From: Beijerinckiaceae bacterium
GTDB taxonomy: Bacteria > Pseudomonadota > Alphaproteobacteria > Rhizobiales > Beijerinckiaceae
Assembly: GCA_025459195.1 (NCBI GenBank)
Contig: JALORF010000001.1
Span: forward strand, 894-64,893
Direction of reading: 5' to 3'
DNA length: 64,000 nt
Below, one piece after another: positions 3,444 to 64,000 of this stretch; position 1 is the stretch's first letter; every line of letters begins with the position of its first letter. The position numbers and the translations under genes were made by a program. The notes under the pieces are model-generated. The model had not been told where the DNA came from, made no database searches, and saw nothing but the letters and a program-made list of their open reading frames with translations.

Positions 3444-6400
3444 ATGATCGCTAGCATCGTTGTTTGGGCTGTCGAGAAGCGCTGGCTTGTTCTGCTGCTT
3501 ACCGCCATCGCCGCCGTCATTGGCGCATTTTCGCTTTCTCGGCTGCCGATCGACGCGGTGCCCGACATCACCAACAATCAGGTACAGATCAACGTCCGCG
3601 CGTCGGCGCTGTCGCCGGAATTGGTTGAAAAACAGGTGTCGTTCCCGATCGAAACCGCGCTCGCCGGCATTCCCGGCCTCGAATACACCCGCTCCCTTAG
3701 CCGCAACGGGTTTGCGCAAATAACGGCTGTTTTCGATGACTCGTCCGATATCTATTTCGCCCGCCAGCAGGTCGGCGAGCGCTTGCAAGGCGTCGCCGAC
3801 AGCCTTCCCGATGGGGTGTCCCCCGAGATGGGGCCGATCGCCACGGGGTTGGGCGAGGTCTATATGTGGACTGTGCGGCTCGATCACCGCGAAGATGACC
3901 GGCATCGTCCAGGCGAACCGGGACAACAGCCCGACGGCAGCTATATCACGCCCGAAGGCGAGCGACTAACCAGCGAGCAGGACAAGGCCACCTATCTTCG
4001 CACGGCGCAGGACTGGATCGTCACACCGCTGCTGAAAAACACGCCCGGTGTTGCCGGCGTCGATTCAATCGGCGGCTATTCCAAACAGTATCTGGTCATT
4101 CCCGACATACAGAAGCTGGCATCGCTCAAGATCACGCTTACCGAGCTTGGCACCGCGCTTGAGCGCAACAACACCAGTGTCGGAGGCGGCTTCGTCAATC
4201 GCAACGGTGAAGGGCTGGCGGTCCGGTCTGACGCGCTGGTGCGCAATGCCAGCGAGCTCGCTCGTACGGTGATCGCAACCCGACAAGGCGTGCCGATCAC
4301 GCTCGATCAGGTTGCAGCGGTGCAAAACGGGCAGGCAATCCGGATGGGCTCGGCGTCGGAAAATGGCAGCGAAGTGGTCGTTGGCACCGCAATCATGCGG
4401 ATCGGCCAGAACAGTCGCGACGTCGCCACTGCCGTTGCCAACCGGTTGGTAGAGATCAACGCGTCGTTGCCACCAGACGTGGTGGTGCAGCCAGTGCTTG
4501 ACCGCACTGCACTGGTCAATTCGACGATCCAGACGGTTGCAAAGAACCTGACCGAAGGTGCGCTCCTCGTCATCGTCGTCCTGTTCCTGTTGCTCGGCAA
4601 CTTCCGCGCTGCGCTGATCGCGGCCGCCGTCATCCCGATCACGATGATGGTCACCGGCTTCGGGATGCTGCGGTTGGGGGTATCGGCAAACCTGATGAGC
4701 CTGGGCGCGCTGGACTTTGGGCTGATCGTCGATGGCGCCGTAATCATTGTAGAAAATGCGTTGCGACGCCTTGCCGAACAGCAGCACCGCGAGGGCCGGC
4801 TGTTGACGACGCAGGAGCGACTTGCTGCGGTTGCCACCGCGGCCCGCGAGATGATCCGGCCTTCGGTTTACGGGCAGGCGATCATCATCCTCGTCTATGT
4901 CCCCTTGCTCACCCTGTCGGGGGTAGAGGGCAAGACATTCGTGCCGATGGCGCTCACGGTCATCATCGCGCTGCTTTTCGCCTTCGTGCTGTCGCTGACC
5001 TTCGTGCCGGCTGCTGTCGCGATCTGGCTATCGACCAAGGTCGAGGAAAAGGACGGCCGGATCATTGCCTGGTTGAAGGCGCGCTACGAACCGGGACTCG
5101 CAGGAGCGATGAAACGGCCGACGCTGACCGTCGGGGCAAGCCTCGGCAGTCTTGTCGTTGCAGCCATTGCCTTCGTGACGCTTGGGCAGGTGTTTCTGCC
5201 GCAACTCGACGAGGGCGATCTGCTCATCCAGGCACTGCGCATCCCGGCTACGTCGGTTCAGCAAAGCCAGGCGATGCAGGTTCCGATTGAGAAGATGGTG
5301 GCAAAACAGCCTGAGGTGCGGTTCGTGTTTTCAAAGACAGGGACCGCCGAACTGGCTTCGGACCCGATGCCGCCCAATGCGACGGATATGTTCGTCATCC
5401 TCAAGCCGCGCAATCAATGGCCTGATCCCCGGCTCGACAAGGCCGCGCTCATCGAGCGGCTCGAAACAAGGCTGCAGCAATTTCCTGGCAATGCCTACGA
5501 AATAACCCAGCCGATCCAGATGCGCTTCAACGAACTGATAGCCGGGGTGCGCGGTGACGTCGCAGTGAAAGTGTTCGGTGACGATTTCGCCGGCATGAAC
5601 CGCACGGCCGAGCAGATTGCCGCGATCTTGCGCCGCACCCAAGGGGCGGTCGACGTCAAAGTCGAACAGACGACGGGGCTTCCCATGCTCGACATCCGCG
5701 TAAATCGTGACTCAATGGCACGTGTGGGCGTCACCGCGCAGGATGTGCAGGACACCGTTACCGCAACGCTCGGCGGGCGCATATCGGGCGTGATTTTCGA
5801 AGGCGACCGACGCTTTCCCGTCGTCATCCGCTTGTCAGAAGCCGAGCGCGCCGACCTCGGGCTGCTGCAGCAGGTGCAGGTGCCGGTTGCTGGTGGCGGC
5901 TATGTGCCGCTGTCGAGCATCGCCTATATCGGCGTCGTCGATGGACCGAACCAGATCAGCCGCGAGAACGGCAAGCGCCGCGTCGTCGTCCAGGCGAATG
6001 TGCGCGGGCGCGATGTCGGCAGTGTCGTGGCAGACGCACAGGCTGCGATTGCAAAAGACGTTCGGTTGCCGGCCGGAACCTATCTCCAATGGGGCGGCCA
6101 GTTCGAAAACCTCGCATCTGCAACCGAGAGGCTGCAGCTCGTGATTCCGGCTTGCTTCATTCTGATCCTGCTGTTGCTTTATGGCGCCCTAGGGTCAGTT
6201 CGGGATGCTGCAATTGTTTTCACCGGCGTCCCATTTGCGCTAGTGGGCGGGGTGCTGCTGTTGTTCGGTCGCGGCATGGATTTCTCGGTCTCGGCCGCGG
6301 TGGGCTTCATCGCGCTCTCGGGCATCGCTGTACTGAATGGCCTAGTCATGGTCAGTTCAGTGCAGGACCTGATCCGTTCAGGCATGAACCGCGCCGAGGC

Positions 6401-52032: not shown

Positions 52033-55014
52033 TCACAATCCAAAATCCAGCTGCCGTTCCGGCGGCTGCTTGACCTTGCTGTCGGCCGGTTCCGGCCGAG
52101 GTGCCGAAGAGGGTGGTGCTGACCGATCGCCGCTCCTCTCTGCGCGCTTTGCTGCCCCAATGCCGCCGCGCTCGAACCGAGGCATAGCCACCTCGCCGAT
52201 CGTTTCCAGCGCAGCAGTCTTGTCGCCGGTGTTGCGCTCGATCTGGCGGGCAATGCGGCTGCTGTCGTCGACGATCAGTTTGAGTTCGTCGCGCACGCGG
52301 GTGATATTGACCAGGAACAGCCGTTGGTTGCTGAGGTTCTTTTCGGCCGAGTCCATCACGGCGATGGCGCGATCGGCGGTCATCCCCTGCGCCATATGGG
52401 CGTTGAGCGCGTAACCGAGATCGAGCCGTTCCAGCATCGGGTCGCGAGCCGGCAGCGCTACGACCATCTTTGTGGAGGTTTCCACCGTGACCCTTTGCGC
52501 AGAGATATTCAGCACTTTGGCCCGGTCCGCATTGATCAGGCCGCGATCGCGGTCGGTGTCGGTCCATCGGATGGTGTCGCCTTCGTGCAACCGCAGCTCC
52601 TTGCGGTCGCTGATGCGCACCGTGTTCTCGTCCCGGTTGGTGGCGAGCTTCGATGGCCGGAACTTGTGATCCTGCCCTCGCTCGTCCTTCAGCGTCACTA
52701 CCCCTTTCGTTGTGTCGACCCCCGCCACCACGTATCGCCCGGCCGCGATGCCCTGGCTAGGAAGGTCGCGCTGCAGCTCGACAATGAGTTCGGGCCGGTA
52801 GCTGTGGAGATAACGCTCCTCCTCCCGCGTCGTCACCACCTTGGTCAGCACGGTCAGCTTCGCCGAATGTGCCGACAGCGTTCCTTCGTCGCGCAGACCG
52901 GCCTGGATGCCCGCGTTGAGCGCGTCACGGATGGCACGACCGGAAGCCAGCAACATCGTTGCATCTCGCTGGTCAGGCGACCGGGAAAGCCACTGCGCCA
53001 CTGCCAGCTTTACCCCTTGTCCCGGCGCATCGGCGGTGAACGGCCGCAGAGCGGCCAGCGCATCGGCCGGTCGATAATCGTTGGCCGCCGCTGCCGCCAT
53101 CATGAGCTCCGGCGCACGGGCCCGCAGGTTGACGTTCATCTTCGTGGTGTCGATGCCGGCGGCCTGCAGAAGCTCAAACGGCTTGCCGGCATCAACCGCG
53201 CCCAGCTGGCGCTTGTCGCCAACGAACGCGAGGCGCCCGACATCGAGCCGTTCAGCGAGCCGGGCGAGCAGCAGCGCCTTATCGTTGGCCATCATCGAGC
53301 TTTCATCGACAAGGATGATGCTGCCGCGGAACATGCCACGTGCCATCGCGAGCCTGTCCGCGCTGACCCGTTCGCCGAGCAGCCATTTGTGTGAGCGGAT
53401 GAACCGGTCGATGGTCATCGAAGCGATGCCGGTATCGCGCTCCAGCATCCGCACCAGCGTGTTCTGTGGCCCCAGCCCAAGCAGGTTGCGCCCTTCCGCG
53501 CGCGCCACCGAAGCCACTGCCGCAAGCGCCGAGCTTTTGCCGGCCCCTGCCACCCCCTGCACGGCCACCACCCGGTCCGGGCTGGCGAGGATCAGCCGGC
53601 CGGCGCTTTCCTGGCCGGGGTTGAGCGCAAAGCCCTGCCCTTCACGCGCGGCCTCCTGCAGGCGCTGCCCGGCTACCTGCGGGTCCGCAATCACCGGGCT
53701 CACACCGCCGCGCCCGTTGCGGGCGATCTCGAGCAGCTTCTGTTCGGTGGTGATGGCGCCCGGTGTGGTCAGCATCTCCGGTCGGCTGGTGCCGCGCACC
53801 AGCTGACCGGCGCGGATGAGGCGAGTGATGCCGCGCTCGACCTGGTCGACAGCGATCGGCAGGCCGAGATCGAGGGCCGTCTTGAGGATGCGGTTCCCGT
53901 CGAACGCTGCTTCGCGTTCGGACAGCGATCGCACTGCCGATGCGATGGCACGCGCCGCGGCGACCTCGTCCGCCGTTATTCCCAAGGTGGACTTGGGCAT
54001 CAGCGGGTCGCGCTCTTGGGTGCCGACGCGCTCAGCGATCAGCGCCACCGCACGCGCCAGTCCCTCGCGGGCGCTGCCAGCGATGCCGGTGATCACCGCC
54101 CAGACATCGCGCGCGCCTTCGGCCCGGCCACGAGCCGCCTCGACCATCTCGCGCAGGCGGCCAGCGTCGGGCCCGGCGCGCTGCTGCCATTCGGCGCGCA
54201 GGGCATCACGGTCCTCGACCTTCTCCTTGCGCACTCTTGTCTTCAGCGTCACCGCATCGCGGGTTTTGTCGTTCTGGTGGGTGAGGGTGGCGAAGGCATC
54301 GAGGATCTCCTCGCGCCGGCTAGAGAATTTCATCACCGTCTCGCGGTCGATGCCGGTGATCTCGAACTGGCCATGCTTGCCGGTCAATTCTATGGCATAG
54401 CCGAGACGCTCCACCGCTGTGCGCAGATAGGCGTGATAGATCGAGCCCAGCACGGTGCTATTCTGCCAGAGCCTGTCGTTGAGCAGCGCCCGCCACTTGC
54501 CATCGAGACCGCGCGTCGCGTTGGCGATGACGGCATGGACATGGGCCTGGGGATCCTTATTTCGGTTTGTATCGTGGCTGAACAGGGCGGCGACCAGGTT
54601 GCCAGTCTTGACTGTCACCATCTCGCCCCCGCGGTTCTGCATCCGGGTTTCCGCGAGGTTCTTCTCGGCCCAGGCGATCGTCGCTCGCGCTGCCGCCTCG
54701 TTCGCGGCCAGCAGCCGTTCGTCGCCGCCGATATAGGCAAGGAGCGAGAGGCTTTTCGGAGCCGAAAACGTCAAATCCATTCCCGGCCGGTGCTTGCCAC
54801 CCGGGCCGGGCCGCAAAACGCTGCCGTCTGGCAGCTTGCCCTCAAGCACGGCGGCAAAATCAATGAGATTTACGTTGCCACTGAGGCCAAGCTCGGCTGC
54901 TCCCTGCCCTGACCATTGGCTGGCGTCTGCGGCCGCATCGGCAGCGTAATAGTTGTCCTTTGCATAGTAGCTCGCCGCCTGGCCCGCGCTGCTTAGTGAA
55001 GCGGCGGACAACAT
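52033..55014 (-). CDS. trwC: MOB-F relaxase-helicase
   Basis: N-terminal YYAKDNYY, DLTFSAPKS, HDTNRNKDPQAHVHAV (3H motif); helicase QGVAGAGKS, VDESSM, HMAQGMT. Confidence 0.95.
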   Translation of the reverse strand: MLSAASLSSAGQAASYYAKDNYYAADAAADASQWSGQGAAELGLSGNVNLIDFAAVLEGKLPDGSVLRPGPGGKHRPGMDLTFSAPKSLSLLAYIGGDERLLAANEAAARATIAWAEKNLAETRMQNRGGEMVTVKTGNLVAALFSHDTNRNKDPQAHVHAVIANATRGLDGKWRALLNDRLWQNSTVLGSIYHAYLRTAVERLGYAIELTGKHGQFEITGIDRETVMKFSSRREEILDAFATLTHQNDKTRDAVTLKTRVRKEKVEDRDALRAEWQQRAGPDAGRLREMVEAARGRAEGARDVWAVITGIAGSAREGLARAVALIAERVGTQERDPLMPKSTLGITADEVAAARAIASAVRSLSEREAAFDGNRILKTALDLGLPIAVDQVERGITRLIRAGQLVRGTSRPEMLTTPGAITTEQKLLEIARNGRGGVSPVIADPQVAGQRLQEAAREGQGFALNPGQESAGRLILASPDRVVAVQGVAGAGKSSALAAVASVARAEGRNLLGLGPQNTLVRMLERDTGIASMTIDRFIRSHKWLLGERVSADRLAMARGMFRGSIILVDESSMMANDKALLLARLAERLDVGRLAFVGDKRQLGAVDAGKPFELLQAAGIDTTKMNVNLRARAPELMMAAAAANDYRPADALAALRPFTADAPGQGVKLAVAQWLSRSPDQRDATMLLASGRAIRDALNAGIQAGLRDEGTLSAHSAKLTVLTKVVTTREEERYLHSYRPELIVELQRDLPSQGIAAGRYVVAGVDTTKGVVTLKDERGQDHKFRPSKLATNRDENTVRISDRKELRLHEGDTIRWTDTDRDRGLINADRAKVLNISAQRVTVETSTKMVVALPARDPMLERLDLGYALNAHMAQGMTADRAIAVMDSAEKNLSNQRLFLVNITRVRDELKLIVDDSSRIARQIERNTGDKTAALETIGEVAMPRFERGGIGAAKRAERSGDRSAPPSSAPRPEPADSKVKQPPERQLDFGL

Positions 55015-55016
55015 GA

Positions 55017-57476
55017 TTACCACCCAAAGTCATCGCGACCTCTGTCGCGCGTGAAGTTCTGTCGGGCCTCGGTAAGCGTGAGATCATCGGCTTGTTCAGT
55101 TGCCGCGGGCGGTGCCGGCCCGGCAACGATATTGAGTTCGACGCCCTCGATCCGGATGGCTTTTTCCGGGAGCAGTTCGCCGGTCTCGGGATCATGGGGG
55201 ACCTCCTTCCGGCCCAGAGACGTGCCTCGCGCCGCGGCCACCCGCACCGGCTTCATTGCATCCCTCGGCGATGTTTGTTCGGCTTGGGTATTGGCAGCTA
55301 TGGGTGGTGTTTTGGGATGGGACGCGGAATCGGATGGACCTACCAGTCCGGCATCGCGCGCAACAGTGTTGAGAGCCCTATCGGCGACATTCTTGAGCTG
55401 CGCTGCAATATCGGGTTGCAACCCGCCGGCCCCCGTGGCGTTGGACCGCGGGTGCTCCGCAGCGGCACCGCTTGCAGAAGCCGCCGCATCTCCATCTGCG
55501 CCATCCGGCGTCGCAGCGCCACTACCACCGGTCGCTTCCGGGCTGCCACCTTCAGCGTCCACCAACGGCAGGAACATCGGTACCGCCACCGTCTGTTCTG
55601 CCGGTGGTGCCGGTGCTGGCGGCGTGACACCATCGGCCGGGGCAATGTCGGTTCCGGGCCGGGGCATGAACGGCGCGGCGCAGTTCCTGCGGGCCTTGAA
55701 CCTCAGCCGGATGCTGCCCGCCGGCAGGTCCTGCGGGAAAACCAGCCAGCCTTCCAGATCGCGCATCTTCATGATCTGGTCGGGCATGACCAGCGGTTCG
55801 GTCTGGCGCTTGTTGGTCAGCGTGACGGCGTCGCGGACATTGGCATAACCATAGCTCAGGCCCTGTTCCATCTGCTGCCATTCGGACTGGCCGATCTGCT
55901 GCGAACACCATTGCGCTGAGGCATAGTCGGGGGTGGCGAGGATGATCTTGGTGCGTGCCAGGCTCGCGAGCGTGTCCGCGATCTTCTCGCCATAGGTCTC
56001 ACGCAGCTTGGAGATGGTATGGACGCCCAGCAGGAAGGCACCGCCGAAGTTGCGCGCGGTCTGCATGCCCTTCTCGATCGCCGGCAGCCGGTGCAGGGCG
56101 CCGAGCTCGTCGAACAGGAACCACAGGCGGATATTGTGCGGGCTGGTTGGCAGCGCCATCATACTGTTGATGGCGGTGTCGAGCCAAAGAGTGAGGAGGA
56201 TGCGCACCGTCGGCAGATCAACATAGCGGGCGCCCACAAAGAGGATCGAACCATCTGGCTGATCTTCCTGCACCCATCGCTTGACCGAGAACGCCGCGCC
56301 TTCGGTTGGCAGCGTCTGCAACGCCGCCGCATTGGTGTTCAGGGTGGAACGGATCGATTCGGCCATGCGCGCCGCTTCGGGATCGGTCAGTGGCGCGGCG
56401 ATGGTGTTCTGGACGAGCCGGTTCACCGCCGGCAGCGCCGCGGTCATGATATAGTCATGCAGCGCCTGGTTGCTAGTCAGTCCCATCTGCTTGAGACGCA
56501 GACAGCCCTCGACCAACAGGGTGCGCGCAGCGATCACCCAGAAAGGTTCGGCAGTTCCACCGTCGTTGGGCACGAGGGCCTCGGCAGCTGCCGTGAATTC
56601 CGAACGGGTTTCGCAATCAGCAAAGATTGACCAGGCCGGACAGCGGGCATCCAACGAGTTGAGGATGATGTCGCGGCTGGGATCGTAGTAGCTCTGTATG
56701 AAGCTGCCAGTCAGGTCGAAGATCACCGCTTTGCCGTGGCGCTCACGAATCTGATCGACAAGCTCCTTGATCGCCGTGGACTTACCGGATCCGGTCGTGC
56801 CGATAGCGAAGGTGTGGGTCTGTTCACCATGCCATGGATAGGGGATACCGGCGATAGTGTAGGGCAGATAGACGTCAGCCTGGGCCAGTTCATGGCGCCG
56901 TGCGAACAGTGAATGCCAGCGCCACAAGGAGCCGAATTTCGCCTCCAGTTCCGCAGCCAGTTGGCTGTCGCCCTGGGCAGCATTGAACTCCTCGACCATC
57001 ACTTTTAGTTCTTTGCCGGAGCACAGCGATGCACCTCGTAGATGCTCCCGGCGCACGACACGCCGACCGATACGGTTGGCCGCGATGGTATAGAGCAGGC
57101 ACAGCGGCAGCCCGCCAAACAGCGTGACATAAAATGCACCCCAGATGCTGCCGGTGAACCGCTGCCAAGCGGCGATCACCGACGGGATGCTGTCGACATA
57201 GCGCACCGGTACCATGACCGTGTGGTTGCCGGCATCGAGGACGGCGACCAGCTTGTCGGGCGAAAGCCGGACATAGCCCCAGATAGCGGCATAGACCTTC
57301 ATCAGGCACCGATACCAGTCGCCCTCCCCCATGCCTGTCCACCAGTTGATGGCAAGCATGATCAGGAACAGCGCCGATAGTCCCCACATCATGGGCTTGA
57401 GGCCGGCGACGAACATCAGTCCGAAAGTCTCGAGCACCTGCGCACCGCGGGTGAAATGTCCGCGATCAGTGCGCAT
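55017..57476 (-). CDS. trwB: Type IV coupling protein (TrwB/TraD family) with a long low-complexity C-terminal tail
   Basis: Two TM helices, GTTGSGKS, LFDELGAL, EQGLSYG. Confidence 0.93.
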   Translation of the reverse strand: MRTDRGHFTRGAQVLETFGLMFVAGLKPMMWGLSALFLIMLAINWWTGMGEGDWYRCLMKVYAAIWGYVRLSPDKLVAVLDAGNHTVMVPVRYVDSIPSVIAAWQRFTGSIWGAFYVTLFGGLPLCLLYTIAANRIGRRVVRREHLRGASLCSGKELKVMVEEFNAAQGDSQLAAELEAKFGSLWRWHSLFARRHELAQADVYLPYTIAGIPYPWHGEQTHTFAIGTTGSGKSTAIKELVDQIRERHGKAVIFDLTGSFIQSYYDPSRDIILNSLDARCPAWSIFADCETRSEFTAAAEALVPNDGGTAEPFWVIAARTLLVEGCLRLKQMGLTSNQALHDYIMTAALPAVNRLVQNTIAAPLTDPEAARMAESIRSTLNTNAAALQTLPTEGAAFSVKRWVQEDQPDGSILFVGARYVDLPTVRILLTLWLDTAINSMMALPTSPHNIRLWFLFDELGALHRLPAIEKGMQTARNFGGAFLLGVHTISKLRETYGEKIADTLASLARTKIILATPDYASAQWCSQQIGQSEWQQMEQGLSYGYANVRDAVTLTNKRQTEPLVMPDQIMKMRDLEGWLVFPQDLPAGSIRLRFKARRNCAAPFMPRPGTDIAPADGVTPPAPAPPAEQTVAVPMFLPLVDAEGGSPEATGGSGAATPDGADGDAAASASGAAAEHPRSNATGAGGLQPDIAAQLKNVADRALNTVARDAGLVGPSDSASHPKTPPIAANTQAEQTSPRDAMKPVRVAAARGTSLGRKEVPHDPETGELLPEKAIRIEGVELNIVAGPAPPAATEQADDLTLTEARQNFTRDRGRDDFGW

Positions 57477-57759
57477 CGCGAGTCCTCCCAAGCCGGCGTT
57501 CCCGCGCTTCCTTGGCCGCCTCGAAAGCCGCCGGGCTGGCGCTGAACTTGAGGAGCGCATCGACACCGATGGCAATGTGCAGGACGAGCTGTTCACTGCT
57601 CATCCCCGGCACAGATCCAGCCCGGTATCGCGCCAGTTCCTGGTCAGCGAGTTCCTTCAGGATAAAGCTCACCGGCAACTTGCGCGCGAGTGCAATGCGC
57701 TGGAAATGCGCATGGACGTCAGGTTCAAGGTAGACGGTTGTTTTGCGAAGATTTCCCAT
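57466..57759 (-). CDS. Relaxosome accessory ribbon-helix-helix protein (TrwA-like position)
   Basis: RKTTVYLEPDVHAHFQRIALARKLPVSFILKELA has an RHH pattern; first gene of the transfer operon next to oriT. Confidence 0.7.
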   Translation of the reverse strand: MGNLRKTTVYLEPDVHAHFQRIALARKLPVSFILKELADQELARYRAGSVPGMSSEQLVLHIAIGVDALLKFSASPAAFEAAKEARERRLGRTRDAH

Positions 57760-57889: not shown

Positions 57890-58040
57890 GTACTACATTG
57901 CCGAAAGGGCACGATTTGCGGCGTGCCGCCGCACTCACCCTGCCGCTTTGCGCCGTCCAAAAAAGAGGCCACAATCAATATCTTGTGCAGAATTCTCCGG
58001 CAGCAAAGCTGCGTAGGGTGTGACAAATTCTGCATTCGCC
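57890..58040 (+). other. Origin of transfer (oriT), predicted nic at 58021/58022
   Basis: GCAGC-AAA-GCTGC hairpin running into TGCGTAGGGTGT, matching the F-family nic consensus TGCGTnnnGTGT; AT-rich, with further inverted repeats at 57917-57933 and 57986-57994/58026-58034. Confidence 0.75.
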
Positions 58041-58177
58041 TGCCGCTCTGATGTGCTGTGATCGCGGTGATGGGCCGGCGGGGAAATGCGTGCCGGAACC
58101 GCGCGCGCGAGGGCGCGAACGCCGCAGACCGGCCCGAGCGCCAGCGCTAAGGCGGTGCAGGGCAATGAGCTCTCAGC

Positions 58178-58204
58178 AAAAAAAGGGGAGCTTTGCAGCT
58201 CCCC
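58178..58204 (-). terminator. Intrinsic terminator
   Basis: Minus strand GGGGAGCT-GCAA-AGCTCCCC followed by T7. Confidence 0.85.
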
Positions 58205-58235
58205 TGGTGCCGTGATGACGGGTGTATGTTGAGGC

Positions 58236-58457
58236 TCAATAGAGCCCTGACATGCGGCCTGGTGCGGTGTGGCAGATGCGGTCGATGAGTGCCTGCTCCA
58301 TCGGCCCGATATCGCCTTCGTCGATGACCTCGTAGCTGCCATCATCGAGGCCGATGACGTGATTATCGAAGGCCGATGTGCGGGTGCGTTCATAGGCGCG
58401 GGCAAGGGCTGCTTCAAACGCAGCAGCGCGTGCGGTTGCGGTGATCATATTGTCCAT
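58236..58457 (-). CDS. Small hypothetical leading-region protein (73 aa)
   Basis: AAGGAG RBS, coherent acidic ORF ending just before the terminator. Confidence 0.6.
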   Translation of the reverse strand: MDNMITATARAAAFEAALARAYERTRTSAFDNHVIGLDDGSYEVIDEGDIGPMEQALIDRICHTAPGRMSGLY

Positions 58458-58504
58458 GGCGAAGCTCCTTTCCGATCGTCGCTCGTGCGACAGGGCAGCG
58501 CGGG

Positions 58505-58701
58505 ACGGAGGCGTGAGGCAGGGGTCAGGGATCGCGCCTCGGCGCGACCGCGCAGCGGCGACGGGGGAAACGATTTTTGCGGGCAGGAGCCGGGTCGCAG
58601 CACCGGCTATGCAGGAATGGAACCGAGCCCGGATCGGCCCGGTTCCTGCCCGCAAAAATGGTGGGGCCCGGTCGTCCTTGAGGCCTGCCTCACGCCTCCG
58701 T
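58505..58701. repeat. Nested long inverted repeats (Frpo/ssi-like single-strand structure)
   Basis: Perfect 18-bp IR at 58505-58522/58684-58701 enclosing a 21-bp IR with one mismatch at 58573-58593/58639-58659. Confidence 0.85.
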
Positions 58702-58917
58702 CATGCTGGGAGGCCAGCTGAAAAGGCGTGGGTTGAACAGGCCTTGTCGTCGCGCCCCAGGCGTCAGTCGCAGCGCCGCTGAACCTTCACAAGCCGGGCG
58801 CGCGCTGGCTCCACGCTGCTGCTCGCCCGTGCGCAGATCAGATACTTGCCCGTCGCAAGTTCTGGTGGCAGTCTTAGCGCTGGTCCAAAGTCCGATCCTG
58901 ATCGGAAGGGACTTTTT

Positions 58918-59253
58918 ATGCCTACACGTAAGTTCCAGGGTCTGGCAGCGCTGCTGCAGATCGATGCCGAGCGCGATGCGCTTGAGGTGCGCGCCAGGGC
59001 TGCGCGAACAGCGGCGGCATCCGAACTGGGCGACGCCGTGCTCGACGCCGTCGGGCCGGCGTTTGCGCCAAGCCAAATTGCCGAGTTGCTGCGGGCAGCC
59101 CAGCGGCTCGGGTTTACCGAAGCCATGGCGTTGATGGGCGCCGCACTGCCAGCACACAAGGACAACAACAGCCGTGACGGAACAGCCGGCAATCGCCGGA
59201 GCATAAGCGCAGAAAAACATGCCGCCACCGGAGCTGATCATGCCGCCCCTTGA
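58918..59253 (+). CDS. Small helical plasmid protein (DUF6437-like)
   Basis: ALLQIDAERDALE..AAASELGDAVL..SQIAELLRAAQRLG; GGAAGGGA upstream. Family assignment from memory. Confidence 0.55.
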   Translation: MPTRKFQGLAALLQIDAERDALEVRARAARTAAASELGDAVLDAVGPAFAPSQIAELLRAAQRLGFTEAMALMGAALPAHKDNNSRDGTAGNRRSISAEKHAATGADHAAP

Positions 59254-59479
59254 GCGCGGCGACATGGTCACGCTTCGGTTCGGGGATGTGCTCGCCGATC
59301 CAGCCGCAAGCGACTGGCTCAAGGCCGCGCTGGCGGCCGCCGTGGCGCGCGATCCGGTCGATGCGGCGCATGATGCCAGCGTTCTCCATGATCTTCTCGA
59401 TGCGCGCTGTGCGCAGCTGCTGGCGCTGGATCAGGGCAATGCAGACCAGCCTTCCCTGCCTTTCAGCAGCGCAGTCTGA
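59240..59479 (+). CDS. Small conserved-looking hypothetical protein
   Basis: DVLADPAASDWLKAALAAAVARDPVDAAHDASVL; overlaps the upstream ORF end. Confidence 0.6.
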   Translation: MPPLERGDMVTLRFGDVLADPAASDWLKAALAAAVARDPVDAAHDASVLHDLLDARCAQLLALDQGNADQPSLPFSSAV

Positions 59480-59637
59480 CGAGCATATGATTGCGTAGAA
59501 CATCGGCCCGCGCACCCCTTCGGCGGGCGATGCGAAGGATGATCGGGGAGAAGGAAACCGGGCCGCGCCTCAGCGCGTGGCGGTTGATTCGAACCGCGGA
59601 GTTGCGCGAGTGCGCGGAGATATTGAGCCGTGTCGCA

Positions 59638-60003
59638 TCAGCTTGCAGGCGGGGCGATGTGATCCAGCCGCTGCTCGAGCCTGGTCCCAACCATCATCCA
59701 GCGCTGTGGCGCGATGGCGCGGGCCCAGTCGGTGAAGCTGGGGATATGGCCCAGATCCTCGCGGACATGGTCCTCGCCGATCAGGCGGACAGGGACGGCG
59801 CGGCCATCGCTGTTCGTGATAGTCGTGCCGAATACCGCCTCAGCCAAAAAAATGCCTTCGGCATGGTGGCGCAGTGCCCGGTGTCGGAAGTCGGCGTGAT
59901 GGGCCTTGGACTCATCAAACCAGTCGTGGATCGGCTGATAGTCGGCGGCAACACCGCCATAGCGGCGTACGCTGGCCAGCGCATGGTGATAGCAGTGGGC
60001 CAT
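59638..60003 (-). CDS. DUF6915-like His-rich protein
   Basis: MAHCYHHALASVRRYGG..IHDWFDESK..RHRALRHHAEGIF..GEDHVREDLG. Confidence 0.8.
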   Translation of the reverse strand: MAHCYHHALASVRRYGGVAADYQPIHDWFDESKAHHADFRHRALRHHAEGIFLAEAVFGTTITNSDGRAVPVRLIGEDHVREDLGHIPSFTDWARAIAPQRWMMVGTRLEQRLDHIAPPAS

Positions 60004-60006
60004 GGC

Positions 60007-60513
60007 TCAGAACTCGGCGTGGTCATAGCTGACCGACTTGGTGCCATGGATCAGGGTGATCCTGGCCTCCGCCACGCAAAAGCTGACAGTGCCGGTGGCG
60101 CCGTCATTGTTCTCCCACCCGGCAAAACGGCATTCGATAACGTCAAGCGCGAACGCCTCGATGGCATCGGACAACGCTAGCTCCTGCTCGTTGACATTGG
60201 TGCCATTCCAGTTGGTCGACTGCAGTGTGATCATGGCCGACGGTAGTTCGATAGCGCAGTTGTTCGAGCCGAGACAGCGCAGCTCTTCGATGCCGCCGCT
60301 GTCACCTTCGCCATAATAAGTGACCTCGATCTCGACGATGCCGGCAGAAGCCAGCACCGGAAAGAGCCGTGCTTTGTTGATGGCGATGCACGCTTCGAGC
60401 GTGCGGGACTGCTGCGCCATCTCGGCAAGAATCTGTTCAACTGCGATCGGGACCGCGTTCGACACGGGCGGCGTTACAGGCGAGGCGGCGGGTTCTTCGG
60501 GCAGGGTGGACAT
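60007..60513 (-). CDS. DUF6878-like acidic protein
   Basis: INKARLF..YYGEGDSGGIE..GWENNDGATG; 3 bp from the DUF6915-like start. Confidence 0.75.
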   Translation of the reverse strand: MSTLPEEPAASPVTPPVSNAVPIAVEQILAEMAQQSRTLEACIAINKARLFPVLASAGIVEIEVTYYGEGDSGGIEELRCLGSNNCAIELPSAMITLQSTNWNGTNVNEQELALSDAIEAFALDVIECRFAGWENNDGATGTVSFCVAEARITLIHGTKSVSYDHAEF

Positions 60514-60764
60514 GGTCGGTCTCCAGCGAGCCTGATTGCTCACCCGGCATCAGCCCCCTCCCCTTTCCATGGACGGTTGCGTTGCATTGCACCCATCATT
60601 GTGAGCGCAGGATTTACGACGCGCCAAACAACGCCAATGGGCGATATGATAGGATCATTTGCTTCGACCCCAATCAAGCCGCAATCAGCCACGCATCATC
60701 GTCGGGATCCGGTCACATTTTGGCATGGCGCAGACACAGGGTGCGGTGGGGATCATGAGCGCCC

Positions 60765-61445
60765 TTATGCTGGCACCACGGGTCTGGCTGCCGGTTCAGC
60801 TACCCAGCGCATTCCACGCGGCAGCGTGGCGTGCGAGATCATGTCGATGCGGAACCAGTCTGCAGCAAAGCCGCACACATCGTCGAACGGGATGCCCGGC
60901 GGAGGCCTGGCCTGGCCGCCGCGCATATCGAGCGTCAGCTGGCCGTCGAAGGTGACGCTGTGGCCGGAGCCCCAGAGATAGTCGATGATGCCGATCTGGA
61001 AGCGGCCGCGGACGCTGATCGCAGCATAGGGCGGGGAGGGAAGGCGGAAATCGTCGTGCACGCACCCGGCGATCGCGAGATGGCCGCCATAACTGGCATT
61101 GTCGAACAACTCGACGAGCTGCGTGTCGCTGAGCAACGGGGGCTGGCTCTTGCTGGCCTTGACACGAAGTGCGCGCCAACTGCTGGCATGCTCATGGCGA
61201 TGCCGCCACGGGCCGGTGTTCCTGATATCGGGGCGGCGGTCGGTTGGGCGGATGCCAGTGCGGGTTTCAACAAGGTCGAGGAAATGCCCCTTGGAGACGT
61301 TCAGGAAGGTGAGCGTCCGTGCCAGTGCGCTATTGGGCAGAACATGGGCCAGCCCGAAACATGGCGCGCTGGCTTCGAGGCGATCATCCTCAATGTTCAT
61401 GAACTGAGGCAGACAAGTCAGGATGGCGATTTCGCGGCGCGGCAT
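60765..61445 (-). CDS. Hypothetical leading-region protein (226 aa)
   Basis: GGAGA RBS; LVELFDNASYGGHLAI..GIIDYLWGSGH; same orientation as its neighbours. Confidence 0.6.
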   Translation of the reverse strand: MPRREIAILTCLPQFMNIEDDRLEASAPCFGLAHVLPNSALARTLTFLNVSKGHFLDLVETRTGIRPTDRRPDIRNTGPWRHRHEHASSWRALRVKASKSQPPLLSDTQLVELFDNASYGGHLAIAGCVHDDFRLPSPPYAAISVRGRFQIGIIDYLWGSGHSVTFDGQLTLDMRGGQARPPPGIPFDDVCGFAADWFRIDMISHATLPRGMRWVAEPAARPVVPA

Positions 61446-61585
61446 GGCGTGTCTCCGATTGTACGGCCAGCTCGTCTGGCCTGCCCCGGCTCCGCTTCCT
61501 CCCCTCCAGCCGGACAAATGAAAAGCCGCCCGGCGGCAGCGTCCGGGCGACTCTGTGTATGCCAATACGACTTTGCTGCTCGTCG

Positions 61586-61882
61586 TCAGCGCGGGAACAG
61601 GATCGCTTCGTAGTCCTGCGCGCCGTTCAGGATATGGAGGATCATCACCCGGTCCGCCTCGACCTGATAGAAGATGAGATAATTGCCGTGAACCCGGCGT
61701 CGGACATTGTGCGCGGCATAGCGCGGAACGACCGGGAAGCGTTCGGGGAATGTCGCAAGCCCGACGCAGCCATCACGCAATTCGGCGATAAAGCTGGTGG
61801 CGCGTTCCGGATTGTCGCGTGCAATATAGTCGCCGATTGCTTCAAGGTCGCGCTCCGCCTCCTCGGTCAAAACAACGATCAT
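61586..61882 (-). CDS. parE: Type II toxin, RelE/ParE family
   Basis: LTEEAERDLEAIGDYIARDNPERA..RRRVHGNYLIFY..ILHILNGAQD. Confidence 0.88.
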   Translation of the reverse strand: MIVVLTEEAERDLEAIGDYIARDNPERATSFIAELRDGCVGLATFPERFPVVPRYAAHNVRRRVHGNYLIFYQVEADRVMILHILNGAQDYEAILFPR

Positions 61883-61889
61883 GCGATCA

Positions 61890-62147
61890 TCATTCAGAAG
61901 TGCGGGCCATTGTGCGGTACTTGGCGTCCAACCTGTCGAATACGTCAACTGCAGGCGTGATGCGCGCGGCGCCGGCGTCGGCGAGGCTCCGGCCGATCGA
62001 CGCGTCAAGCGCTGCGAGCCTCGTCTCCCTGTCCTGGATCAGTCGCACGCCTTCCCGCAGAATTTCGCTTTTCGAGTTGTAGCGACCGGTTGCCACCAGG
62101 TGCGCTACATAGGCCTCCAGCCGCTCGCCAAGGTCAGCACTGATCAT
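61890..62147 (-). CDS. parD: Type II antitoxin, ParD family (RHH)
   Basis: ADLGERLEAYVAHLVATGRYNSKSEILREGVRL; directly upstream of the toxin. Confidence 0.9.
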   Translation of the reverse strand: MISADLGERLEAYVAHLVATGRYNSKSEILREGVRLIQDRETRLAALDASIGRSLADAGAARITPAVDVFDRLDAKYRTMARTSE

Positions 62148-62230
62148 GTGATGTCTCCTCTTCGGCAATTGTAGACGCTTATCAACTGTTATCAAGACTG
62201 CCGGACTGAAGCAGATCAATCGATGGAAAT

Positions 62231-62258
62231 CTGCCCCGGCGCCGCAGCGCCGGGGCAG
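62231..62258 (-). terminator. Hairpin after ssb (putative terminator)
   Basis: CTGCCCCGGCGC-CGCA-GCGCCGGGGCAG, a 12-bp stem with only a short T tract. Confidence 0.6.
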
Positions 62259-62266
62259 AAAGCGGC

Positions 62267-62650
62267 TCAGAACGGAACTTCTTCATCGCCCGAGCCGGCA
62301 CCGTCGGCGGCGGCGCTGCCGGTGGGTGCCTTGCTGAGGAACTCGACCTCGCTGGCATAGATGTCGACGCCGTAGCGGGTCTGCCCAGCCTGATCAGTCC
62401 ACTTGCTGTAGTGGAGCCGGCCTTGAACAGAGACCTTCATGCCTTTGCGGACGTATTGGGCGATGGTTTTGCCCAGCCCGCTGAAGGCGGTGATACGATG
62501 CCATTCGGTCTGTTCGACGAGATCGCCGGCATCGTTTCGGTAGCGGCGTGAGGTGGCGACCGAGAAGCTGGTGATGATGGTGCCGCCCTGGGCGTTGCGG
62601 CTTTCGGGGTCGGCGCCGACATTCCCGACAAGAATGACGATATTGGTCAT
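62267..62650 (-). CDS. ssb: Single-stranded DNA-binding protein
   Basis: NIVILVGNVGADPE, TEWHRI, KGMKVSVQGRL, acidic tail DEEVPF. Confidence 0.95.
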   Translation of the reverse strand: MTNIVILVGNVGADPESRNAQGGTIITSFSVATSRRYRNDAGDLVEQTEWHRITAFSGLGKTIAQYVRKGMKVSVQGRLHYSKWTDQAGQTRYGVDIYASEVEFLSKAPTGSAAADGAGSGDEEVPF

Positions 62651-62671
62651 GGGACTGCTCCTGTTCTGGTG

Positions 62672-62829
62672 CGCCGGGACCATCCCGGCGACGGCTGACG
62701 ATGGGAGACGCAGCGGGGATGCCAGACACCGAGCAGGGCGAGGGAAACCCCGGCGGCGGGGAGTGGTGCGGGCCGCCGGTCCCCCGGCCTGCCGGAGAGG
62801 ACCGGCAACACGGCCCCGCCGGCGGGGTT
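62672..62829. repeat. Nested inverted repeats upstream of ssb
   Basis: 16-bp IR with one mismatch at 62746-62761/62814-62829 enclosing a GCCGGTCC/GGACCGGC pair; extra hairpin at 62672-62690. Confidence 0.7.
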
Positions 62830-62850
62830 GTCGGGCAACCGCGCAGTGGC

Positions 62851-63310
62851 TCAGACAGGCCGGTCGCTGGGTGCGTTCTGGAGCTCGAACAGACTGGTCC
62901 TGACCATCCATCGTGTATCGGGCATATGTGGCCGCCAGCCCGATTGCGGCCTGGACCGGGAGTGACACAGCCCAAGCAGGTTCACACTGGTCACGACCGC
63001 CTCACCGAGCGCTTCGATGCCATAGGCCACAAGCCGGGTAGTCGTGGCATCAACCGTCTGGCCCGTGGCAAGGGCCATATAGCGCACGATCCCTGCCAGC
63101 ACGGCAACGAACAGGCCGAATAAGTTGGCGCGCAGCAGCGTGACAGCAGGCTGGCCGGACGCTTCCTCGGTGGTTGTCGGGTTGCCGTAGCGGAGTTCCT
63201 CGACGGGTAACGTGACCAGCCATACCAGTGACCGAGAATGACGAGGCCCGGTTCGGGCCACCGCAGCCAGCAGCGTCTGCAGCCGGTGAAGAACGACGTG
63301 CCATGGTCAT
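62851..63310 (-). pseudogene. Possible frameshifted hydrophobic ORF
   Basis: The ATG at 63310 (coupled to the upstream stop) is out of frame with the hydrophobic frame 62851..63261 (LFGLFVAVLAGIVRYMAL). Confidence 0.3.
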
Positions 63311-63732
63311 TCCTCTCCAAGGAAGCGGAGCAGCTCGTCGGTCGTGTCGAAGCCGCGGACAATCGGACGACTGATGCAGACTCTGCTGCCCACCGGGATC
63401 CAGCGGATCAAGGCCAGCAAATCGTCGGTGCTGACAGTTGCCGGGCCATCATCCTCGCGACCGGAATCGCCGATCAGCACGCCGCGCCCCGCGAAGGTTC
63501 GCCCGTCAAGCTCGAAGTAAGCCTGCTCGCTCTTCAGAAAGCCTTCATCATCGACGACCAGCAGATGGTTGGCTGGTGTATTGACCATGGTGATGTCGAA
63601 ACAGGTGACCGGCGTGCTATGCAGGCCGTCGGGCGAAGTGCCGGACAGGAGGCGATAGTAATCCTTGTAACCGGCAAGCTTGCTGGTGGCGACTATCGTC
63701 TGTATCCACGGATCGATCAGGATGACGCGCAT
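63307..63732 (-). CDS. DUF3846-like protein
   Basis: MRVILIDP..LVVDDEGFLK..FAGRGVLIG; GGAGA RBS. Family assignment from memory. Confidence 0.65.
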   Translation of the reverse strand: MRVILIDPWIQTIVATSKLAGYKDYYRLLSGTSPDGLHSTPVTCFDITMVNTPANHLLVVDDEGFLKSEQAYFELDGRTFAGRGVLIGDSGREDDGPATVSTDDLLALIRWIPVGSRVCISRPIVRGFDTTDELLRFLGEE

Positions 63733-63812
63733 GGGGGTTCTCCATTCGCCCGACCATCGGGCATCCCTGCCTGGTCGCCTCCACTCTCATCGGCGGCCCT
63801 GACCGCTGAAGG

Positions 63813-64000
63813 TCAGCACCGTTCGGTGCGTGGGCATGCGGCGCTTCCCGCAACGGCCGCCACTGTGTGATCGGCCGGATCGAGGGTGAACAGACGGTCG
63901 AAGATATCGATGTCCCGGCGGGCAAGGAGGCCACGGTTGTCAGGGACCGTTTGAAGCGCGTCGCTGACAAACATGGCCACTGCAATCGGGATGTCACCGG
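63813..64000 (-). CDS. C-terminal part of an ORF running off the window edge
   Basis: Open frame GDIPIAVAMFVSDAL..RRDIDIFDRLFTLDP.. to TGA at 63813-63815. Confidence 0.4.
   Translation of the reverse strand, partial: GDIPIAVAMFVSDALQTVPDNRGLLARRDIDIFDRLFTLDPADHTVAAVAGSAACPRTERC

Follow-up and report, generated by a model that had tools for sequence, protein, structure and literature searches.

Promoters that act on single-stranded DNA (ssDNA) explain how plasmid anti-defence and establishment genes are expressed before the second strand is made. Three classes are known, class 1 (Frpo1 and Frpo2, ssi1–3), class 2 (ssp2, at ardA/klcA) and class 3 (M.EcoGIX), all of them on IncF and IncI enterobacterial plasmids (PMC9849209, PMC11541004, PMC12672017, PMC13478746). 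The ssp2 elements of F and pESBL, which lie upstream of ardB/klcA and ardA, have been validated by others (PMC12672017; PMC13478746). Primer RNA is made by Frpo in vitro, and a delay of complementary-strand synthesis by ssp2 has been reported (PMC12672017; PMC13478746, which cites Fraikin et al.). In one recent study the ssDNA promoters worked poorly in Sinorhizobium, and tuning to the host sigma factor was suggested (PMC12672017). Until now the device has been demonstrated only on plasmids of the E. coli type; the family described here, from the Alphaproteobacteria, is large.

We analysed a stretch of 64,000 nucleotides (the window) from contig JALORF010000001.1 of a Beijerinckiaceae bacterium, in which the sequence and a repeat search revealed a nested hairpin at positions 58504–58702, in the intergenic gap between p73 (minus strand) and a DUF6437 gene (plus strand) (Table 1). 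Only one copy of the element is present in the 3.2-Mb assembly from which it comes. Its outer stem pairs 58504–58522 with 58684–58702 of the plus strand over 19 bp with no mismatch, and resumes past a 2x2 internal loop with TCAGGGA (58525–58531) opposite TCCTTGA (58675–58681), one G-T pair included; the core of the inner stem pairs 58573–58594 with 58638–58659 over 22 bp, again with one G-T pair. An earlier note on this DNA had described a nested stem-loop of about 200 nt with stems of 18 and 21 bp, non-coding, 48 bp from the first leading-region gene and about 500 bp from nic, and apart from the slightly longer stems this description stands: the element is intergenic, with 47 nt between the p73 ATG and the base of the stem, and 483 nt separate it from the nick-like motif on the same (plus) strand. 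Folded as ssDNA, the plus strand reaches -84.9 kcal/mol compared with -52.6 +/- 3.2 for shuffled sequences (z = -10.0), and the minus strand gives a z of -9.3. The inner hairpin may be an A/T tract that resembles an UP element, with a possible UP-like role.

Table 1. Coordinates of the element, its proposed promoter signals and the neighbouring genes (positions in the window)
Feature	Position	Strand	Remarks
TrwC relaxase	52033–55023	-	left of element
TrwB coupling protein	55017–57596	-	left of element
oriT nick region	58000–58022	+	inverted repeat GCAGC/GCTGC, then GTAGGGTGT followed by G; predicted nick between these, after 58021
Intrinsic terminator	58184–58205	-	closes one-gene unit before oriT; 9-bp stem, then seven-T run
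p73 (73-aa gene)	58236–58457	-	first leading-region gene; ATG at 58457; ribosome site AGGAG at 58465–58469; predicted promoter target
Predicted transcription start	58491–58496	-	about 12 nt past stem base; 5' UTR about 34–39 nt; placed from the -10 position
Outer stem, 5' arm	58504–58531	+	proposed template strand of rebuilt promoter
hp1 and hp2 (small conserved hairpins)	58532–58547, 58548–58558	+	branch off template arm just upstream of -35
Inner long hairpin	58559–58674	+	base CGATTTTT / AAAAATGG conserved; apex variable, expanded
Outer stem, 3' arm	58675–58702	+	proposed non-template strand; holds -35 TTGAGG and 18-nt spacer
-35 TTGAGG	58678–58683	+	in 3' arm; 18-nt spacer to -10
-10 CATGCT	58702–58707	+	A-11 is 58703, T-7 is 58707; unpaired from A-11 on
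Discriminator GGGA	58708–58711	+	directly after -10
DUF6437 gene	58918–59253	+	216 nt right of element; faced by hexamers in dsDNA
ssb	62267–62650	-	right of element; true start 62650

The nick region, which we take to resemble the nick sites of R388 and F, fixes the orientation of the locus. Because the plus strand carries the relaxase nick motif it is the transferred strand, entering 5' to 3' rightwards, and genes that are to be readable from the entering strand must be on the minus strand. The TrwABC genes are further left, and a small minus-strand ORF is found beside those for TrwC and TrwB. Homologues of p73 occupy the equivalent position in 14 other loci (34–52% identity over the matched 40–48 residues), and no Pfam or NCBIfam family was matched by p73. 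These proteins of 73–74 aa share the motif ..ERRALHSFFDQHVIED..GY.A.DEGDY, and their genes are always the first past oriT in TrwABC-type sphingomonad and erythrobacter plasmids. By its position p73 is a candidate for the earliest-expressed establishment protein.

Searching a plasmid collection by blastn with the window element or intergenic region returned just two partial matches, both sphingomonad. Folding of these, together with a few genome matches, revealed a nested architecture identical in kind to that of the window element, and a pattern scan for the conserved left core recovered the family in 120 loci across the Alphaproteobacteria. There are two forms, a long form with the inner hairpin, homologous to the window element, and a short form without it. 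A covariance model built from 37 hand-checked long-form copies finds 81 distinct copies in the fetched loci, with one copy in the window, and has matches in 6 of the 150 alphaproteobacterial families sampled. The hosts include sphingomonads, Erythrobacteraceae, Rhizobiaceae, Acetobacteraceae and others, and the carriers are Ti plasmids, rhizobial symbiosis plasmids, and sphingomonad metal-resistance and degradative plasmids; one rhizobial copy alone matches 701 plasmid records, 509 of them typed as conjugative and with pTiC58 and pSymA among them. Our literature search found no paper that describes this family.

Pairing is strongly conserved within the family. In the MAFFT alignment 97.1% of cells are paired, compared with 81.0% after shuffling (none of 500 shuffles attained the observed value) and 36–50% when the partners are slid; 18 pairs have changed on both sides, covering 217 cells, and the covariation score is 0.409 as against at most 0.088. 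The two small hairpins hp1 and hp2 (helices 3 and 4) are 98% paired across the family, with a CG/GC swap in hp2 in eight sequences, and helix 6, of the inner hairpin, is 99.7% paired, with five pairs changed on both sides. The sequences of hp1 and hp2 (GATCGC..GCGACC and CCGS..SCGG) are themselves near-invariant throughout the family, short forms included. The outer stem is hypervariable in sequence while keeping its pairing, a pattern incompatible with a protein operator and explicable only by pairing within the strand. Moreover, G-T pairs outnumber A-C pairs by 122 to 2 in the family stems, as expected if the plus strand folds; its complement, and any minus-sense RNA, would not. On this comparative evidence the hairpin structure is selected, and it is the plus strand, the one transferred, on which a stable fold has been kept. 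The two computational checks proposed earlier, folding of the plus strand as ssDNA and covariation analysis, thus both gave positive results, the compensatory changes being abundant across sphingomonad, erythrobacter, rhizobial and acetobacter plasmids.

The most conserved features of the family are the -35 and -10 signals. A-11 and T-7 are each kept in 79 of 81 copies, while the three bases between them vary freely. Sigma takes hold of these same two bases in single-stranded non-template DNA, and the optimal discriminator is GGGA, the sequence that follows in the window. Position -12 is C or T in 77 of the 81 copies, G-5 and G-4 are kept in 65 each, and A-3 is found in 53. Upstream, TCCTTGA of the 3' arm is invariant, and the -35 element is TTGACG (35 copies) or TTGAGG (33 copies) in 68 of 81. 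Among the 75 copies with a recognisable -35, 47 have a spacer of 17 or 18 nt (29 and 18 copies, respectively); a spacer of 15 nt, present in 17 of 81 copies, counts against a promoter. The signature in the window is CATGCTGGGA, and other examples from the family are CAGAATGGGA, CATAATGGGA and TGGTACAATGGGA. In minimum-energy folds of the individual copies, -12 is paired in 81% and -11 in 20%, and in these models the hairpin ends between -12 and -11, where the open complex begins.

The hairpin rebuilds a -35 and -10 at sigma-70 spacing, oriented with the transferred strand as template for the downstream gene. A scan of 57901–64000 for -35/-10 pairs whose spacer is paired to upstream sequence identifies the element as the sole site, with none on the other strand, and a conventional sigma-70 promoter scan of both strands of the gap found nothing that scores. 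The earlier note had considered that -35 and -10 hexamers were not obvious in the stems, but both are there, TTGAGG within the 3' arm and the -10 at the base of the stem. CATGCT is a poor -10 by consensus and the window hexamers match at only 7 of 12 positions, which would make for a weak promoter in the duplex state. No -10 is present on the minus strand at the mirror position in the family alignment.

If the 3' arm serves as non-template strand, RNA polymerase would read the 5' arm and then the 5' flank, and the RNA would run leftwards in the minus sense. A minus-strand gene with an AGGAG-type ribosome site begins 33–47 nt past the stem base in 80 of the 86 copies that could be assessed. Genes in the flanks were identified by a search for ribosome sites and start codons with clustering by homology, as ORF calling based on GC3 is unreliable for short plasmid genes. 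The downstream genes belong to many unrelated families, including p73, 45–57-aa coiled-coil proteins, families of 109–125 aa and 160–184 aa, YAcAr/SLOG, DUF3846 and a zinc-ribbon protein, and most have no Pfam or NCBIfam match. Since unrelated genes stand at a fixed distance from it, the element behaves as a portable cassette.

The position in the leading region, on the transferred strand, is shared by other family members. The order TrwC-TrwB-(oriT)-p73-element is found in ten sphingomonad and erythrobacter loci, in six of which ssb lies beyond; the TrwB proteins of the ten are 40–48% identical to that of the window, so these are distinct plasmids. In ten other loci an inverted repeat with the nick motif TGCGTAnGGTGTG is present on the folding strand 600–1000 nt to the left of the element. 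In pTiC58 the folding strand carries an RSF1010-like nick core (an inverted repeat, then TAATTGCGCCCTT) 4.6 kb upstream of the element, which precedes a 56-aa gene within a run of minus-strand DUF736 and ArdC genes. All copies are co-oriented within each of the 16 loci that have two or three of them. In an Aurantiacibacter plasmid, which is rearranged, the relaxase does not adjoin the element.

Alternatively, the same hexamers could form a conventional duplex promoter that serves the DUF6437 gene on the right, with the inverted repeats as upstream regulatory DNA such as an operator. The sequence TTGAGG-N18-CATGCT does read rightwards on the plus strand, and DUF6437-type genes with the sense of the transferred strand lie 150–216 nt beyond the element on its right-hand side, both in the window and in eight related loci (L032, L056, L069, L100, L109, L119, L134 and L146), with an HU gene in four rhizobial loci. 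We nonetheless regard this explanation as improbable. The spacer is free in sequence but covaries with a segment 150 nt upstream, whereas an operator would conserve sequence and not complementarity; the fixed spacing of 33–47 nt is to the leftward gene and not to the rightward one; and the right-hand neighbour is mostly on the minus strand (DUF736 in 17 loci, ssb in six), such that a rightward transcript would be antisense to it. The match of the hexamers to consensus, noted above, also counts against it. Some rightward activity of the hexamers may occur, as a secondary matter, once the DNA is double-stranded.

The fold could alternatively belong to a structured RNA, as had been suggested for this hairpin before: a small RNA, a cis-antisense RNA to the p73 leader, or a leader of the DUF6437 gene, transcribed rightwards so that the plus sense folds. 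It would fold with pairs compatible with G-U, and the best match of the window element in Rfam 15 is to the C4 antisense RNA, on the minus strand, with 24.3 bits against a gathering score of 45 (E = 0.14); for a rhizobial copy it is to Ms_AS-8, with 19.7 bits against 48. Neither element matches any Rfam family at the gathering score, and we rejected the C4 identity as a sub-threshold, chance match to a hairpin. Further, the sole conserved promoter is inside the 3' arm, and RNA made from it would lack the structure. On the left, each lineage has its own coding gene and no plus-strand promoter is conserved, there is no terminator past the stem, and an RNA offers no explanation for invariant A-11, T-7 and GG exactly at the stem end. 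A structured RNA is accordingly improbable.

A second nested hairpin of the window, at 62672–62855 upstream of ssb, folds with a z-score of -4 and has a similar layout, with TTGTCG (62828–62833), an 18-nt spacer, a stem end at C62852 and then AGACAGG, and it has A and not T at -7. It was considered as a member of the family and was rejected by the covariance model.

The short forms have the core GGTCAAGGATCGC..GCGACC..hairpin..TCCTTGAC, with an outer stem that covaries and no inner hairpin. They were found in loci L036, L041, L051, L065, L066, L086, L090, L121, L130 and L136 (Albimonas) and in other Rhodobacterales loci; the stem is followed by nAnnCT in those outside Albimonas and by GCTCAGGCAT in the Albimonas copies. 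In the chromosomes of Albimonas and other Rhodobacterales they are multi-copy and often sit between convergent genes, which is REP-like and a context that misfits a role specific to conjugation. They also give some colour to the view, in part anticipated by the earlier note, that the element itself has no promoter function and is a MITE- or REP-like palindromic repeat, either selfish or neutral. However, its genome carries a single copy of the window element, which stands at a set position with respect to a gene start and to oriT, and the promoter bases are conserved. The family copies are not scattered in the manner of a MITE; those found together at one locus are invariably co-oriented, and with a single genomic copy and co-orientation in 16 multi-copy loci we rejected a MITE identity for the long form. 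That the element is merely a repeat is hardly credible.

Our preferred reading, to which we give a probability of about three in four, is that the element is a fork-junction ssDNA promoter and a member of an undescribed alphaproteobacterial class. As best read from the sequence, it would drive p73, and most likely it would be a promoter only while the incoming DNA is single-stranded in the new host. In the proposed mechanism, nicking at about 58021 would allow the plus strand to enter the recipient with its 5' end first, whereupon 58504–58702 would fold and the outer stem would rebuild a duplex with the -35 TTGAGG and the 18-bp spacer. The stem stops at -12, and CATGCT and GGGA would thus be left as a permanently open, single-stranded fork. 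A host RNA polymerase with a sigma-70-type factor would bind this pre-melted promoter, using the 5' arm and 5' flank as template, with initiation from the fork assumed to proceed without a downstream duplex. Transcription leftwards toward oriT would give a short mRNA from about 58492 through p73 to the terminator. Synthesis of the second strand would remove the hairpin and should switch the promoter off, and it is in this sense that activity is predicted to depend on the single-stranded state.

Several features lie outside this mechanism. The promoter model does not explain hp1 and hp2, the inner hairpin or a conserved motif in the 3' flank. This last, (C/G)TGAGC(A/C)G, is single-stranded, lies about 8–12 nt past the discriminator and is conserved across the long-form copies (alignment columns 240–250); the window version, GCTGAAAAG at 58715–58725, matches it only weakly. 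The very stable branched fold and the two invariant small hairpins exceed what a promoter needs, and this could be taken to favour a replication role on the incoming strand, either as a single-strand initiation site at which RNA polymerase or primase makes a primer, or as a roadblock that delays second-strand synthesis. Precedents are the Frpo primer RNA made in vitro and the delay reported for ssp2 (PMC12672017; PMC13478746). We think it improbable that either is the main function of the element. A primer made here could be extended for only about 480 nt toward the 5' end, no primase-type recognition motif was identified, and the constant distance to a start codon with a strong ribosome site, seen in the 80 of 86 copies, favours an mRNA. 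A replication role is compatible with a promoter as an added function, and RNA polymerase may synthesise a primer at the element, as it does for Frpo.

The earlier note had proposed a promoter or primase site, and, more specifically, a Frpo-like single-strand promoter with high GC, perhaps of a divergent class proper to the Alphaproteobacteria. The promoter half gains from the sigma-70 signals, and we found nothing that specifically favours the primase half. The divergent class is supported, in so far as folding, covariation and promoter signals can speak for it.

One extension of the ssDNA promoter, which we consider possible but unlikely, is that it represents a distinct kind, in which the hairpin supplies only the duplex of -35 and spacer and a terminal single-stranded fork of -10 and discriminator makes melting unnecessary, and in which the same hexamers would in addition switch their target. 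On ssDNA they would serve p73 to the left, and on double-stranded DNA the gene on the right, which is DUF6437 in the window and HU on some rhizobial plasmids, with two genes expressed in temporal order.

If an ssDNA promoter is the correct reading, a conserved alphaproteobacterial class would extend the ssDNA-promoter principle to another major plasmid world. A model of sequence and structure would then mark the transferred strand and leading region in unannotated plasmids, and would flag uncharacterised first-expressed genes (p73, the 45–57-aa coiled-coil proteins, YAcAr/SLOG and DUF3846 among them) as candidates for anti-defence or establishment functions. A fork-junction layout in which only A-11, T-7 and a G-rich discriminator are conserved would also be a natural test case for the reading of single-stranded -10 DNA by sigma.

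Among known systems, ssp2 resembles the element in being a hairpin rich in GC that lies in the leading region on the transferred strand, with -35 and -10 on the 3' arm in the direction from loop to base, a -10 that is partly unpaired, and a downstream gene on the opposite strand just past the stem base. In our own fold of F ssp2, the 3' arm carries TTGCAT-N16-TAAGAT, whose TAA falls within an internal loop. The -10 of ssp2 is thus in an internal bubble with a stem of about 20 bp below it, whereas the stem of the element ends at -12 in a terminal fork, and the family differs further in its branched fold with two extra small hairpins and in its alphaproteobacterial hosts. The two do not have significant sequence homology, as the covariance model scores 6.2 bits (E = 0.45) at the F ssp2 site. 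This non-significant match, at 4490–4585 (minus strand) of the plasmid F locus L151, is the model's only one in the F leading region, and it falls on ssp2 upstream of an antirestriction gene.

The Frpo1 and Frpo2 elements of F and ssi1–3 of ColIb-P9 likewise are in the leading region, have a fold specific to the transferred strand, occur as several co-oriented copies per leading region, lie upstream of ssb-type or establishment genes, and share the principle of a promoter rebuilt by intrastrand pairing (Masai and Arai 1997; PMC9849209). The Frpo hairpin is about 320 nt, compared with 140–200 nt in the present family, and no match to the covariance model falls on Frpo1 or Frpo2 of the F leading region. 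In our own folds of F Frpo1 and Frpo2 no convincing hexamers could be placed.

Two further comparisons concern how RNA polymerase reads such structures. The single-strand origins of rolling-circle plasmids of the ssoA and ssoU types are folded ssDNA in which RNA polymerase reads -35/-10-like sequences in the stem, as proposed for the element; they differ in that they give a short lagging-strand primer on small rolling-circle plasmids and have no gene at a fixed distance. Fork-junction templates used in vitro are laboratory constructs, duplex to -12 and with a single-stranded non-template strand from -11. The family has its boundary between duplex and single strand at the same place, -12/-11, in about 80% of copies, and the bases that sigma reads in single-stranded form, A-11, T-7 and the G-rich discriminator, are the ones the family conserves, so that the element would be a natural fork-junction template.
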